Virus record (IMG/VR): IMGVR_UViG_2690316068_000001
Span: 31,208 to 95,207 of that record
Reading direction: 5' to 3' (one strand)
Length of the DNA stretch: 64,000 nt
Origin: a virus
Taxonomy: Duplodnaviria; Heunggongvirae; Uroviricota; Caudoviricetes
Of this stretch, positions 53,553 through 59,192 are shown one piece after another; position 1 is the first letter of the stretch; each line of letters begins with the position of its first letter. Below the pieces are notes generated by a model that saw nothing but the letters and a program-made list of their open reading frames with translations, had not been told where the DNA came from and searched no databases. The position numbers and the translations under genes were made by a program.

Positions 53553-53686
53553 AAAGACCTCATAAGCGAATTTTTTACGCTCCAGGACAAACACTCATTC
53601 ACAGCCAATACCGACTGACTCGATCCCTTTAGAAGGCACAGGATAATGCAAATCACTTGTTAGCTACGTTTCAAAGATATACATTA

Positions 53687-53703
53687 TTGCTCTAATTAAT
53701 TTA
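53687..53703 (+). promoter_or_regulatory. C1 operator match upstream of ssb
   Basis: ATTGCTCTAATTAATTT. Confidence 0.6.
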
Positions 53704-53721
53704 TTTTATTAGGTAAGATAA

Positions 53722-54210
53722 GTGGCACAACGCGGTGTAAACAAAGTCATCCTGATTGGTACCCTGGGGCAAGACCCGGAGATCAGGTATATACCAAATG
53801 GCGGAGCGGTCGGAAGACTCAGCATCGCAACGAATGAATCATGGCGCGACAAGCAAACGGGCCAACAGAAAGAGCAAACAGAATGGCATAAAGTCGTTTT
53901 GTTCGGAAAACTTGCTGAAATTGCGAGTGAGTATTTACGAAAAGGTTCTCAGGTCTACATCGAAGGGAAACTTAAAACCCGTAAGTGGACAGATGACGCC
54001 GGTGTAGAACGTTACACGACGGAAATTATCGTCAGCCAGGGCGGCACCATGCAAATGATCGGCGCTCGCCGTGACGATTCACAGTCCTCAAATGGCTGGG
54101 GGCAATCAAACCAACCTCAAAACCACCAGCAATACAGTGGTGGCGGTAAACCTCAGAGCAACGCCAATAACGAACCTCCAATGGACTTTGACGACGATAT
54201 TCCGTTTTGA
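53722..54210 (+). CDS. ssb: single-stranded DNA-binding protein
   Basis: Near-identical layout to E. coli SSB ([19 protein letters not shown]...[30 protein letters not shown]...), Gly/Gln-rich linker, acidic tail DFDDDIPF. Confidence 0.95.
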
Positions 54211-54407
54211 ATGTGTAAAAAACGACTGAAAGAAAAGCGGTGGTCCAGACGCCGACAAAAGCACGAACTCGCAAACAAACGCCAAAGTTGGCAATGGCAC
54301 ACGCTTTTCACGAAAAGAACACCCCGAGATATTGCGTTCGCTGGTGGGAAAACATTCCTGACCCACCTGAAGGCGCAATACATCAGGTTTTAAGCAGAGG
54401 AAAGACT

Positions 54408-55085
54408 ATGAATAACATGACAACGAAAGAGCTTTTGACGGCACTTCCAAAATACAAAAGCCATAAAACAGTTCGCGCCTCAAAAATCAAAGATATCGAA
54501 ATTATCGCCCTAATGGATGTGGTCCTTTTTTGCAACATCGAAGTCGTTGAGCCAGAAGGGGTAAAAGTCCATGTTGATAAAATATTTTTGCAAAAACACC
54601 GACCAGAAATTGGCGGATATCTGGTCGCTTATGAGGACGGATCTCTGTCCTATTCACCAGAAAAAACATTTGAAGAAGGCTTTAGTCGGACTAACGACTT
54701 CTTCGAAAATGGGGTATCGCTCAGCATTGAAGGTCACAATGGGGTGACATTCATTACAGCCAGGGACGTAACTATTTCTGCTGGCGGTATCGCTACTCTA
54801 CAAGAAGAAATCGACCTTGAAGCAGCCGACTTTTCTGACGCGCTGATGTGGCTGAAGGATGGCAAGAAAGTTGCTCGACGCGGGTGGAACGGCGAAAACC
54901 AATTCTGCTGGCTGGTTCCTGAAGGACAGTACCCGGCACGAATGGAAGCCATTAAGGGATATTTCCCCGGCGACCTCGTTCCGTATGGTGCTTATTTCGC
55001 CTTAAAAAATGCACAAGGTGTAGTTGTTCCGTGGGTTCCTTCTGTAGGCGACTTACTGGCATGTGACTGGTTTGTAGTGGAGTGA
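54408..55085 (+). CDS. two-domain protein with C-terminal DUF2829-like (Tad2-like) domain
   Basis: C-terminal ...FSDALMWLKDGKKVARRGWNGENQFCWLVPEG...VVPWVPSVGDLLACDWFVVE resembles DUF2829 signature as I recall it. Confidence 0.4.
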   Translation: MNNMTTKELLTALPKYKSHKTVRASKIKDIEIIALMDVVLFCNIEVVEPEGVKVHVDKIFLQKHRPEIGGYLVAYEDGSLSYSPEKTFEEGFSRTNDFFENGVSLSIEGHNGVTFITARDVTISAGGIATLQEEIDLEAADFSDALMWLKDGKKVARRGWNGENQFCWLVPEGQYPARMEAIKGYFPGDLVPYGAYFALKNAQGVVVPWVPSVGDLLACDWFVVE

Positions 55086-55091
55086 TTTAAC

Positions 55092-55874
55092 GTGGAAAAT
55101 ACTAAAGCAATTCAATACCGCCTGCGTAATGGCCAGAGTGTCGAAGTGACCATCAATAATGATGGAGTACCTGGCGAAAAGGTTTCTATCTCTGATCTGG
55201 CTATCGAAAAAACCATCATGTGCCACCTTGGCTTTACTGAAGAAGTGAGCAAAAAGCATGGTGTAGCAATCTGGAGCGCAATGGATACTGGTATGCGCAA
55301 ATTCATTACTGCTCGTACCCCAGGGATGACCATGATGGACCTCATGCAGATTGCGCCGCTGTTTGAATGTGAGCCTTTAGATGTATTCAGCAATCCAGCT
55401 ATCTGCCAGCAGTTATATGGTGAGATGAAACTCGCGGTTACCCCCATTGTGCTGCATGAAGGATCGCTTGCTGGCGTGTGGAAAGTGGAGCGTATTTCAA
55501 GCTACATGCCTTTCCATGTCAACGGCGTAATCACTGGTGAAAATCAACCTGTTTCCGTTATAAAGTCAGACCTCAAGCGCGCAATTCTTGAAGCAAGTTG
55601 TCGAGTTGTCGGCCTGGGCAAACAGTCTTATGTTTCCTTCCCGGCTGGCCCTGAAGGCCCGGCAGAAATTCTGATTATGGATGCCGATCTGCTCTGGCAA
55701 ATACAGTTTCTGATTGGCAAAAGCATCATCCGCGCTGAAGAACTCGATCAGTACATTACCTGCACGATGACGGATGAAGTCAAAAGTGTGGCTATAGCCA
55801 ATGCCCGGAACCTATGTCGTGCTGCATTAACAGAACTGCAAGAAAACACCACGGAAGAAGTGGAAAGCGATTAA
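55092..55874 (+). CDS. hypothetical protein
   Basis: 260-aa ORF, GTG start 7 nt after upstream stop. Confidence 0.4.
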   Translation: MENTKAIQYRLRNGQSVEVTINNDGVPGEKVSISDLAIEKTIMCHLGFTEEVSKKHGVAIWSAMDTGMRKFITARTPGMTMMDLMQIAPLFECEPLDVFSNPAICQQLYGEMKLAVTPIVLHEGSLAGVWKVERISSYMPFHVNGVITGENQPVSVIKSDLKRAILEASCRVVGLGKQSYVSFPAGPEGPAEILIMDADLLWQIQFLIGKSIIRAEELDQYITCTMTDEVKSVAIANARNLCRAALTELQENTTEEVESD

Positions 55875-55905
55875 AAAAAATCCCGCCGATTGGCGGGATT
55901 TCTTC
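55873..55905. terminator. bidirectional rho-independent terminator
   Basis: AAAAAAAA-TCCCGCC-GATT-GGCGGGA-TTTCTTC between convergent genes. Confidence 0.75.
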
Positions 55906-56215
55906 AATATACGATCTGGTCTACATGATCACCAAAATCATCGTCGTCGTCGTCCTCATCGCCACCATCTACTGCTGGCCAATCAACAAACCAGCCAGCG
56001 TAAAGATGCAGCGTTCGGAGAACATCACTTGCGGGAGCATCAAGGGTGTTAACGAATCCCATATAGCTATTGGGATTTGCCCCAGCTATGGCTTCAGCGA
56101 TCATGTCCTCGGTAATGTCACCGGAGATAATGCTTAAACGCCCGGAAACTTCTTCATTATCATCAAATTCGATAATGGCATCTCCGCCTAATGGCGCTGC
56201 GATTTTAATCTGCAT
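55904..56215 (-). CDS. hypothetical protein with poly-acidic C-terminus
   Basis: 103 aa ending DGGDEDDDDDDFGDH; last gene of dar operon direction. Confidence 0.4.
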   Translation of the reverse strand: MQIKIAAPLGGDAIIEFDDNEEVSGRLSIISGDITEDMIAEAIAGANPNSYMGFVNTLDAPASDVLRTLHLYAGWFVDWPAVDGGDEDDDDDDFGDHVDQIVY

Positions 56216-59192
56216 TATTTAGCTCCTTTGCCACACCTAATAACAGTTCCAGCAATCCGTCACCATTCATCAGTGATGCGGCAGCGGCCTCTTTGTCATG
56301 ATACAACTGAAGAGCCATAGAGAATACTTCCGTTGCTGACGTTTTGGAAATAGTCGGTGATTTCTGCCGAATTTTCCCGGTGTTACTTACTGAGGCTGGC
56401 GGGTATACCTTCGCCATATAAATATTACTCAATCGAGATCTGAAGCACCATTCAGGCTTGCCACGCCCACCGATATTAACGAAAGATGGCTTATCCCCTT
56501 CAACATTGGCCTTCAGGAATGACCGGGCTTTCTCTAACAAACCAGGGTTACTGTACTCAAGATGATGACCCAGCTCGTGCCACAGTGCACTTGCATTTTC
56601 ATCGTTCAAATTGACAGCAACAACACCATTAATATTTGCATATGCCCTTCCCTGGTGGTGAACCACCTTTGATAAGGTCGAAATTTTACCGCCGGTCAGG
56701 CGATAAATATCAGCAAGTTCCTTGCGCAGGTCTATCCCACCATTCTGTCCAGCGCGGGCTTCTTCCACTTCTTCCGTGATAAAAGAGTCGGCCCACTCAA
56801 GAGCTTTTTCTTCAGATACGGATGAGTTGGCGATCGCACTGTTCATGGCAGATAACACTTTCTCGTGGACCGAACCCATACTTTGCTGATTCATTTGCCA
56901 GCGTGTCTGCGGGTTATATGAGAATCGCTTAAGTAGTTGGTCAAGATGCTCAAGTTCTTCTTCGCTGACATACTTTTTAGCCTCACCAATAATGCCGGGG
57001 AGAATATTGCCGTTAGGATTAAACGCTCGCGAAAGGAAGAGTTTCAGCGCCCCCATGCCCTCCGATGCTTCAATATCACCAATAACACGGTTAACAATGG
57101 CCGCACTCTTCGGATTAGCATCCGCCAACGCTCTGGCTACGATTTGCAGGGACGATACGACCTCACGCTGCATATCAGTCCTGATCTCATCAATAAACTC
57201 TGGCGTTATGCCGTGCTCTTTAAGGATATCCCTGCCTTCCGCCGTTACCCCATCGATATCACCGACATGTTTATTAACCTGACTTTGCAATGCCTTAAAT
57301 GCCCTCAGAATTCCACGGGCATCATCAGCTTTACTAACGGCCTTCCTGAATGCTGGCAAGAAGTCAGAGTTAACCTCATTTTGTTGATCGGCCCACTGAA
57401 TGGAGGCTTCTTTCATCTCGTCCAGAGTCAAATCACCCAACGCGGTATGGTCTGTGAATATGAGCGACAACCTCTGAACCATTTCTGCCAATGGTGATGC
57501 CGAATGCGCCGCGCTAAGGAATGCTTTCACCCTGGTTGGGCGAATGGAAAACCAGTCAATAGCTGGTGGCATATCTCCGTTTTTTATCGCCTGCGCTATC
57601 TCGTCAAAGCCATCGCGCCCAAGGGAGGATGCGTGATTTAACAAGCCGCGAAGTAACGAATTGCTGATACCGAATAATCGGCACCATTTTTTCACGTCGG
57701 CAACAGGCATTCGAACAAAATGCGCAAGCACTTGTACAAGCTGTTCATCCTGGGGATCTGTACGGGAAAGCAGCCTGATCAGATGAATAATGTCTTTGAT
57801 GCCGGATGCCCGATGTAATAGCAAACTGGTATATGGAGCAACACCATTGTAACTACCGCCGGAAACGGACTCGAAAAGACCGCCGGATATCCCTTGCATG
57901 CCTTCGTTTTCCAGTTCCTGAGACACCTGGCGAAGGATATCCTGTAACGACACATCACCACCGCCAAACATATCCCCCAGCGCCTGGCCCTGGTGCTGTA
58001 ACTCATCATTGATACGTTGAGCCATCAACTTAAAGGCGGAGGCCATACGCTTCGCGCTACGGTTATTCGCGACGATGAACAACGCGAGTGCTTTCACTTC
58101 CGGGGCCGTTTCGCTGAACATATCCCCCTGAGCAATAACATCGGTAATATGCTGGCCTGACTCCTTCGATTGCCTTACCAGGTCTACCGCATCTTTCAAT
58201 GCCGCCAGCGCCTTTTTATCGAGGCTATCCGCTGTCTCAATGCCATCAACAATAGTTGTCACAGCCTGCTTGTGCGCTTCTCCTGATAAAGCCTGCATCT
58301 GGACAAAATCATTGGCTGCCGCATTAAGCGCCGTCAGAACATTACGCATGTCCGGATCAGGTTCTTCTGCAACCATCCTTACCAGGCGCGCATCCTTATA
58401 TGCCTTGGCAAAGATCGCGTTTTGTATACGGTCTACAAGTTGCCGTGTTGGTCGCCCATCTTCAGTTACAAGGCCAGCCGCCTGTGTGGCACCAACTTGC
58501 GTCATAAATCCGCGAATAAACGCGTCATTACTGCGGCTAAGCAGATCTCCGCTTTCTGACGGGTTAAAAAGCGCCATCATCGCCGGTGTTATGCTGTCGG
58601 CATCAACAAAAGCCTTTTCACTGGCTGCCATTTCCTGAAGATCAGAAATATTTGAGTCCTTGGCAAACTGAACGCGGTCAACCTTGGTTAACCGGCGGCG
58701 CACCAGTACCGGAGCCGTCATTGATTCAACCTTTTCAGGTCGTATGCCGAATTCGGTCGCATGATCAATCAGGTACTCACGATACCGATCCGCATTGCCG
58801 TCCTGATAGGCTTTGATGATCCCCATGGTCCGTCCATTACCTGACTCAACGGCATTGTCCTCACCAATTATCGGCGCACCATGGCTGGATAAACCGGAAT
58901 CAGTAAGCTGAGCAGGCCGCAAATCTTTGGATATCTGGTTAACCTGAAGAAGGCTGGATGCGCGGGTCCGGTCGCGCGGCTGAAGTTCCTGGGGATAGTC
59001 AGGATTAATTTTCCCATCCAGAGTATTGGATACCAAAAGAGCTGAGGCATCGACGATATCAAACGCTGTTTTTACCTCGTCTCCCTTCGCTGTCACCACA
59101 TACGAAACCCGCCCATAACCGGGCAGGTTCTTTAGCAGCTCGATCAGCGTTTCTATGCTGGTGGCCATTACCACCTGATCGCTTAAGCTCAT
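56205..59192 (-). CDS. ddrB: DdrB-like large internal head/antirestriction component with HExxH motif
   Basis: 995 aa downstream of darA-ddrA; contains WHELGHHLEY (HExxH zincin-like) near C-terminus. Confidence 0.55.
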   Translation of the reverse strand: MSLSDQVVMATSIETLIELLKNLPGYGRVSYVVTAKGDEVKTAFDIVDASALLVSNTLDGKINPDYPQELQPRDRTRASSLLQVNQISKDLRPAQLTDSGLSSHGAPIIGEDNAVESGNGRTMGIIKAYQDGNADRYREYLIDHATEFGIRPEKVESMTAPVLVRRRLTKVDRVQFAKDSNISDLQEMAASEKAFVDADSITPAMMALFNPSESGDLLSRSNDAFIRGFMTQVGATQAAGLVTEDGRPTRQLVDRIQNAIFAKAYKDARLVRMVAEEPDPDMRNVLTALNAAANDFVQMQALSGEAHKQAVTTIVDGIETADSLDKKALAALKDAVDLVRQSKESGQHITDVIAQGDMFSETAPEVKALALFIVANNRSAKRMASAFKLMAQRINDELQHQGQALGDMFGGGDVSLQDILRQVSQELENEGMQGISGGLFESVSGGSYNGVAPYTSLLLHRASGIKDIIHLIRLLSRTDPQDEQLVQVLAHFVRMPVADVKKWCRLFGISNSLLRGLLNHASSLGRDGFDEIAQAIKNGDMPPAIDWFSIRPTRVKAFLSAAHSASPLAEMVQRLSLIFTDHTALGDLTLDEMKEASIQWADQQNEVNSDFLPAFRKAVSKADDARGILRAFKALQSQVNKHVGDIDGVTAEGRDILKEHGITPEFIDEIRTDMQREVVSSLQIVARALADANPKSAAIVNRVIGDIEASEGMGALKLFLSRAFNPNGNILPGIIGEAKKYVSEEELEHLDQLLKRFSYNPQTRWQMNQQSMGSVHEKVLSAMNSAIANSSVSEEKALEWADSFITEEVEEARAGQNGGIDLRKELADIYRLTGGKISTLSKVVHHQGRAYANINGVVAVNLNDENASALWHELGHHLEYSNPGLLEKARSFLKANVEGDKPSFVNIGGRGKPEWCFRSRLSNIYMAKVYPPASVSNTGKIRQKSPTISKTSATEVFSMALQLYHDKEAAAASLMNGDGLLELLLGVAKELNNAD

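Follow-up and report, generated by a model that had tools for sequence, protein, structure and literature searches.

Tad2 proteins (DUF2829) counter Thoeris defense by sequestering immune signals, and homologues differ widely in the ligands they bind (PMC12393519). HgmTad2 holds gcADPR, a signal derived from ADP-ribose (ADPR), through W21 and N22 of a GWNG loop together with S90, T92 and D93 (PMC10680739). ModTad2 leaves type I Thoeris uninhibited; its ligand is His-ADPR, the signal of type II Thoeris, and a second pocket takes cUMP or cCMP (10.1101/2024.01.03.573942; PMC12393519). Type II Thoeris is inhibited by close homologues of ModTad2, one of them from the enterobacterium Tatumella (10.1101/2024.01.03.573942). 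In both HgmTad2 and ModTad2, an insertion between strands beta2 and beta5 builds this second, cyclic-nucleotide pocket (PMC10680739; PMC12393519). Tad2 (PF11195), Acb4 (PF13876), Sequestin (PF21825) and Acb2/Tad1 (PF24729) are four unrelated immune-signal sponge families, and Sequestin was identified by its fusion to known sponges in Pfam domain architectures (PMC12265669). Sponges are typically phage proteins of <100 aa that form homo-oligomers and have positively charged pockets at the interfaces (PMC12265669). Here we describe a Tad2 gene of a P1-like phage-plasmid, found in a 64,000-nucleotide (nt) stretch of IMG/VR record IMGVR_UViG_2690316068_000001 (the window, whose coordinates we use throughout). 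This gene, hereafter gene 1 (54408..55085, plus strand), is probably an accessory counter-defense gene, and it joins its Tad2 domain to a small N-terminal domain whose recognizable fusion partners are, in other proteins, immune-signal sponges.

Gene 1 encodes 225 amino acids (aa), in which the open reading frame (ORF), Pfam and a structure model delimit an N-terminal domain that appears to resemble the oligonucleotide/oligosaccharide-binding (OB) domain of Dec, a linker, and a C-terminal Tad2 domain. The last of these (aa 136-225; 54813..55082, plus strand) is a genuine Tad2-family domain. A sequence-only reading of this DNA, made without database searches, had noticed a DUF2829/Tad2 signature in the C-terminus of gene 1 and proposed the gene as a counter-defense candidate. 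The signature is borne out by PF11195, which matches aa 141-224 far beyond chance (E=1.6e-22; 80.2 bits against a cut-off of 25; profile positions 2-73 of 73), and comparison with solved structures also matches Tad2: the predicted fold is that of a Tad2 protomer, with an N-terminal helix, an antiparallel sheet and a C-terminal helix. The counter-defense proposal is likewise supported. ModTad2 is the best match by fold as well as by sequence (9eib and 8v3e, E~6e-21; 47% identity), followed by HgmTad2/AcrIIA7, SPO1 Tad2 and SptTad2 at E-values of 1e-9 to 1e-12; its lead over SPO1 Tad2 and HgmTad2 amounts to about 10 orders of magnitude in E-value in the PDB search. The HgmTad2 gcADPR residues W21, N22, S90, T92 and D93 correspond to W160, N161, S212, G214 and D215, and W160 and N161 of the GWNG loop are conserved, as are S212 and D215 of a second motif that reads PSVGD here, PSVSD in ModTad2, and SQTD in HgmTad2 and SPO1 Tad2. 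The Tad2 call is thus confirmed but not novel, because the family has already been annotated and surveyed: PGAP labels gene 1 a "DUF2829 domain-containing protein", UniRef names a homologue "Thoeris anti-defense Tad2 family protein", and a 2025 DefenseFinder survey reported Tad2 in 93% of D6 and 56% of P1 phage-plasmids.

What existing annotation does not explain is the N-terminal domain of gene 1 (aa 10-97; 54435..54698, plus strand). It is modelled as a small beta-barrel at a predicted local distance difference test (pLDDT) score of ~90, and is followed by a variable, beta-rich linker (aa 98-135; 54699..54812, plus strand) of low confidence (pLDDT 46-54). The domain matched no Pfam or NCBIfam model, in keeping with the sequence-only reading, which had left it without an assignment, and its PHROG matches are to families that carry no functional label. 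The family is large: a phmmer search of 1.84 billion representatives returned 2,514 clusters at E<=1e-3, and 48 of the best 150 representatives are 115 aa or shorter, i.e. stand-alone proteins. Bas106_0070 and gp77 of PCSE1 are examples of family members that stand alone. Its members share the signature LP.Y.CHK.V.A.KI ... KH.P..GGY.V.YEDGY.S.SPAKAFE.GY. The N-terminal domain appears to be remotely related to the OB domain of Dec, the decoration protein of phage L (PDB 6e3c), although Dec lacks the HK and YEDGY.S.SP elements of the signature and does not share the most conserved family residues (H19, K20, Y75, D77, S81, S83 and P84). In isolated phages, the family's genes lie among early, replication or accessory genes and not in head-assembly modules. 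A literature search returned no description of this family or of its association with sponges, though it may have been named recently. One family member, gp96 of Pseudomonas phage Dolphis (164 aa; locus L013, 3986-4480), is annotated as a "capsid decoration protein" and sits among small early-type genes beside a DNA methyltransferase; its remote resemblance to Dec is the probable source of that label. A 2,604-aa protein with eight apparent repeats of the domain (P0151) was set aside as an immunoglobulin-repeat adhesin matched spuriously.

The partners of the N-terminal domain offer a clue to its role. Among 60 longer family members, the only Pfam families present were Acb4 (5 proteins), Sequestin (5), Tad2 (4) and Acb2/Tad1 (1). 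The fusions include Acb4 in P0154, P0213, P0276 and P0184, Acb4 with Sequestin in P0263, Sequestin in P0147, P0206 and P0224, and Acb2/Tad1 in P0189, and the order of the domains is interchangeable (L042, P0270). Using local hidden Markov models (HMMs), we found seven in-frame sponge fusions and seven separate sponge genes closer than 2.5 kb in 80 independent IMG/VR loci, against three sponge genes in the 2.5-10 kb zone of the same loci, which holds 2.2x more DNA. The binomial P for this proximity is 1.8e-5 with all hits and 0.013 without the fusions, figures that are rough because the HMMs were built from few seeds and some of the loci are related. At one locus (L035, 420-1708), a Tad2-Sequestin fusion gene comes immediately before one that joins the N-terminal domain to Acb4, so that two adjacent genes hold four small modules. 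In the window itself, a minus-strand ORF at 620-1471 was weakly matched by a five-sequence Acb4 HMM (E=0.0075), probably as noise. Because the domain turns up repeatedly in fusion with, or next to, members of four unrelated sponge families, a second anti-defense activity suggests itself, and we regard the N-terminal domain as a candidate additional anti-defense module. A Pfam-based fusion screen is blind to the domain, since it has no Pfam model.

The Tad2 protein also varies in ways suggestive of diversification. Between the proteins of P1-like elements, mean pairwise identity is 86% and 80% in two core segments of the Tad2 domain and 51% in the beta2-beta5 insertion (aa ~168-199), which occurs in at least three length alleles: ModTad2-like, as here, longer, and short. 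As the insertion is hypervariable and forms the second pocket, the pattern fits diversification of specificity. In the short-insertion allele (P0021, P0028, P0031 and P0036), WKG replaces the phosphate-binding WNG, which suggests that the canonical pocket is altered or lost. Whole domains appear to be exchanged as well: across aa 121-225, one D6-type protein matches the window protein at 100% identity, yet in the N-terminal domain the figure drops to ~55%, pointing to exchange at the level of the single domain. The linker exists in two allelic forms and is missing from some homologues, and the same Tad2 domain is found in dUTPase-Tad2, Tad2-Sequestin and tail-fiber-repeat-Tad2 architectures. 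Phage D6's own Tad2 gene (146 aa) has no N-terminal domain; dUTPase and Tad2 are separate neighbors in that phage (L004, 2085-3034) and a single ORF in some E. coli elements (P0056, 241 aa). Single-domain exchange and a hypervariable insertion would both fit an arms race over ligand specificity.

The ligands of the Tad2 domain are most likely ADPR-derived signals made by TIR proteins, with His-ADPR ahead of 3'cADPR because ModTad2 is the closest characterized relative, an order that at 47% identity amounts to a guess. The sequence-only reading had assumed a canonical type I Thoeris sponge of 3'cADPR or gcADPR, and this is a substantial, if lesser, possibility: the GWNG and S..D motifs of the gcADPR pocket are conserved, type I Thoeris is the system that most of the tested Tad2 homologues block, and a functional pocket is predicted for 99% of Tad2 (PMC10680739; 10.1101/2024.01.03.573942). 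It is nevertheless ModTad2, which fails on type I and whose close homologues act on type II, that matches best in sequence and fold, and PSVGD is nearer to its PSVSD than to the SQTD of HgmTad2 and SPO1 Tad2. That the domain is instead an AcrIIA7-type anti-CRISPR directed at type II-A Cas9 is extremely improbable. Type II-A CRISPR is not known from the E. coli and Salmonella that host P1-like elements, which counts against it. Moreover, AcrIIA7 is HgmTad2 itself, a sponge of gcADPR and cyclic dinucleotides (PMC10680739), and its anti-CRISPR activity was not reproducible (10.1101/2025.06.06.658234). For the N-terminal domain, the best reading is an independent anti-defense module. More specifically, we tentatively propose that its ~85 aa represent an unrecognized and very widespread anti-defense family, either a new signal sponge or a binder of a defense protein or trigger, which would make the P1-like protein a two-activity inhibitor. 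A serious rival, itself no better than possible, takes up the similarity to Dec: a capsid-binding OB fold with a beta-rich stalk could be a structural or oligomerization module that has no anti-defense activity of its own and multimerizes or localizes Tad2, or the whole protein could be associated with the virion. This rival sits poorly with a gene in the early ssb operon that has no late-promoter-like site before it, and P1 makes virions without gene 1. The family's hallmark residues are absent from Dec, its members occupy replication and accessory regions, and only cytoplasmic sponges were recognized by Pfam among the 60 longer members; in addition, a trimeric stalk would clash with a Tad2 tetramer.

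The sequence-only reading had placed two plus-strand ORFs here, and both are present as described, at 54408-55085 (225 aa) and 55092-55874 (260 aa). The second, which it left unassigned, does have an assignment: this GTG-initiated gene 2 (55092..55874, plus strand) encodes a homologue of P1 IsaA (YP_006486), matching phrog_2326 over its full length (E=2.3e-149), with 94% DNA identity to P1 isaA and 94-96% protein identity to IsaA cluster representatives. P1 IsaA has the same position relative to ssb and hxr, but in P1 it directly follows the ssb leader, and its annotation of 320 aa places the start at an upstream GTG, whereas here isaA stands behind gene 1. The IsaA model (pLDDT 85; predicted template modeling score, pTM, 0.82) had no informative structural neighbor. 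The family was found only in P1-like elements, with clades at 40-50% identity in D6, Klebsiella, Raoultella and Enterobacter; a 39% homologue (L005) was discarded as an uninformative, error-ridden copy of the same locus. In D6-type and Klebsiella loci, a Tad2 gene directly precedes IsaA; in Enterobacter, one gene intervenes. The order in these elements (L006, 1892-5777; L008, 1-4747; L011, 1-4855) is a cre-like integrase, a 114-aa gene, a 160-aa gene, a dUTPase or N6/N4 DNA methyltransferase, Tad2, an optional 169-aa gene, and IsaA. The small genes of this operon have no Pfam hits, and the operon looks like an anti-defense islet.

Linkage of this kind could mean that gene 1 and isaA form an obligate two-component system, with IsaA needed for or regulating Tad2. 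The two genes are adjacent or one apart in two contexts and four lineages, with IsaA down to 40% identity, and in the window only 6 nt separate the gene 1 stop from the isaA GTG, which has a GGAG 9 nt upstream; so small a gap suggests translational coupling. We nonetheless judge such a system unlikely. P1 and many E. coli P1-type plasmids carry isaA right after the ssb leader without Tad2, Enterobacter elements have an extra gene between the two, and Tad2 proteins act alone in all published tests (PMC12393519); furthermore, the Tad2 domain is 100% identical in two lineages whose IsaA share only 49%. Since isaA also occurs alone, the pair is not obligate; the association is recurrent and fits a small accessory or anti-defense islet, and a literature search returned no description of Tad2-IsaA linkage. 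The extent of gene 1 has an alternative of its own, a 281-aa form starting at GTG 54240, from which the frame is open; SJ46 annotates this start, and the P1 annotation uses it for isaA. The 281-aa product is very unlikely, because the four differences from P1 that fall in the extension are all non-synonymous in the GTG frame, a GAGG Shine-Dalgarno lies 7 nt upstream of ATG 54408 and only a weak one at the GTG, PGAP chooses the ATG, those homologues that were inspected in other contexts begin MNN... directly 3' of another gene, and the largest cluster of gene 1 homologues is 225 aa long. The 197-nt leader between ssb and gene 1 (54211..54407, plus strand; 98% identity to P1) is therefore probably non-coding despite the SJ46 and P1 annotations, and position 54230, where the sequence-only reading began its feature, falls inside it. 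The leader is kept in every variant of the locus, and its RNA folds somewhat better than shuffled sequence (dG -53.1 kcal/mol, z=-2.1).

Comparison with P1 shows how gene 1 sits in its surroundings. Over the 1.9 kb around the locus, identity is 100% with E. coli plasmid NZ_CP128965.1 (95.6 kb) and 99.3% with Salmonella phage SJ46. Relative to P1, window positions 54100-54411 are 98% identical, positions 55096-55874 match isaA at 94% DNA identity, and positions from 55906 on align to hxr; in P1, the same leader, Shine-Dalgarno and ATG lead directly into isaA without gene 1. Judged by this alignment, precisely one gene, gene 1, has been inserted or deleted. The interval from isaA to hxr (55875-55905; compared with L001, 5104-6817, L016, 2373-3467, and L003, 1032-2147) is a cargo hot spot: it holds only a terminator here, IS1 and isaB in P1, and in other E. 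coli plasmids a 364-aa gene without a Pfam hit. That IS1 lies in the ssb-ddrB interval of P1, as the sequence-only reading stated, agrees with the P1 annotation. The possibility that P1 isaB is a remnant of the 364-aa gene was dropped, as the two share no similarity. In P7, a porin gene, nmpC, lies between ssb and the hxr equivalent. Among 5,426 complete E. coli genomes, 588 matched the locus region and 116 carried 80% or more of it. Contigs of ~90-100 kb from E. coli, Salmonella, Shigella, Klebsiella and Enterobacter encode gene 1 homologues of 211-233 aa.

The operon that contains gene 1 begins with ssb (53722..54210, plus strand), identified as an ORF annotated as ssb in P1 and SJ46. Its promoters P2ssb and P1ssb, with the C1 operator Ossb/Op21 (ATTGCTCTAATTAATTT, 53686-53702), map to 53657..53719 (plus strand) when features of NC_005856 are transferred by alignment, over a stretch identical to the annotated P1 sequence. 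No plus-strand terminator-like site was found between ssb and gene 1, and no P1 late-promoter-like site upstream of gene 1, the only perfect match being LPlyz on the other strand (53640-53658); a promoter scan gave no match but is uninformative, having also missed the known ssb promoters. With the ssb promoters and C1 operator kept, no terminator intervening and no late promoter, ssb, gene 1 and isaA would form a C1-repressed early operon. The sequence-only reading had also described a bidirectional terminator downstream, and such an element is present: a G+C-rich, 10-bp hairpin between isaA and hxr (55878..55901; dG -17.1 kcal/mol, z=-2.65), with an A-run on one side and a T-run on the other that make it readable on both strands; of its two T-tracts, that of the minus strand is the stronger. 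Rfam leader and small RNA models matched this region (55776-56003) weakly, all far below their gathering scores, and were dismissed as chance matches to a hairpin and U-tract. Beyond it lies the convergent ddr operon, with hxr as its last gene (55904..56215, minus strand) and ddrB (56205..59192, minus strand) upstream of it; the two genes do lie between ssb and ddrB, as had been read from the sequence, except that hxr separates the terminator from ddrB.

Together, these observations suggest a model for gene 1 as an accessory counter-defense gene of P1-like phage-plasmids. Gene 1 would be transcribed with ssb from the C1-operator promoters and made once repression is absent, upon infection or induction. 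By analogy with solved Tad2 proteins, its Tad2 domain is expected to form a tetramer, as a dimer of dimers, whose inter-protomer pockets would sequester TIR-made, ADPR-derived signals before they reach the Thoeris effector, while the second pocket, built from the hypervariable insertion, may accept cyclic nucleotides. As an independent module of a very large uncurated phage family, the N-terminal domain most likely adds a second activity, the binding of a ligand or target, within the same polypeptide. IsaA would be a co-transcribed, lineage-restricted accessory protein that often travels with Tad2 without depending on it. Domain identity, fold, motif conservation, gene order and the fusion and neighborhood statistics are computed; from them we infer oligomeric state, ligands, expression timing and every function given here to gene 1 and IsaA.

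As a whole, we consider it likely that gene 1 is an early counter-defense Tad2 sponge with an independent N-terminal module, although several points weigh against this. The 135-aa N-terminal extension could hinder tetramer assembly, and G214 stands where HgmTad2 has T92 and ModTad2 a serine. Because Tad2 homologues bind differing ligands, the ligand cannot simply be transferred from ModTad2. Most other fusion partners of the N-terminal domain are unrecognized singletons, its proximity to sponge genes could come about simply because both reside in accessory islands, and its sole solved relative is a capsid decoration protein and no ligand binder. At the level of the locus, P1 and many E. coli P1-type plasmids keep isaA without gene 1, and co-transcription of gene 1 with ssb is itself deduced from the sequence.

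The N-terminal domain is a more useful lead than the Tad2 call; whenever a fusion partner of it can be recognized, that partner belongs to one of four unrelated sponge families. Guilt by fusion is also how Sequestin came to light, so the domain could add a family to the anti-defense catalogue, and if it does act in anti-defense, its many unrecognized fusion partners become a hunting ground for further anti-defense domains. In addition, since P1, the classic transducing phage, lacks precisely gene 1, which is present at this locus in about 116 of the 5,426 complete E. coli genomes, P1-like vectors could differ in their sensitivity to Thoeris-type immunity.

Set beside the known systems, gene 1 combines familiar and new features. 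ModTad2 is a stand-alone protein of 89 aa, whereas here the domain makes up the C-terminal 40% of a 225-aa protein; His-ADPR and cUMP binding were demonstrated for ModTad2 only. HgmTad2 (8kbi) and SPO1 Tad2 (8sme) are less similar to gene 1 than ModTad2 is, and HgmTad2 differs further in a longer insertion, which forms a cGG/cGAMP pocket, and in the threonine that gene 1 replaces with glycine. Dec is a capsid binder, whereas the genes for proteins with the N-terminal domain lie in early or accessory regions, and the sponge domains to which the N-terminal domain is fused are cytoplasmic. The closest parallel in architecture is with the sponge-sponge fusions, such as Acb4-Tad2 of phage Pm86, Tad2-Sequestin, and the Acb4-Sequestin protein gp59 of Ab09, in which, as in gene 1, a sponge such as Tad2 is linked to a second small phage module; close relatives of the gene 1 Tad2 domain themselves carry a C-terminal Sequestin domain (P0061, P0062 and P0073). 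Gene 1 departs from these fusions in that its partner is not a known sponge but an uncurated, OB-like domain.

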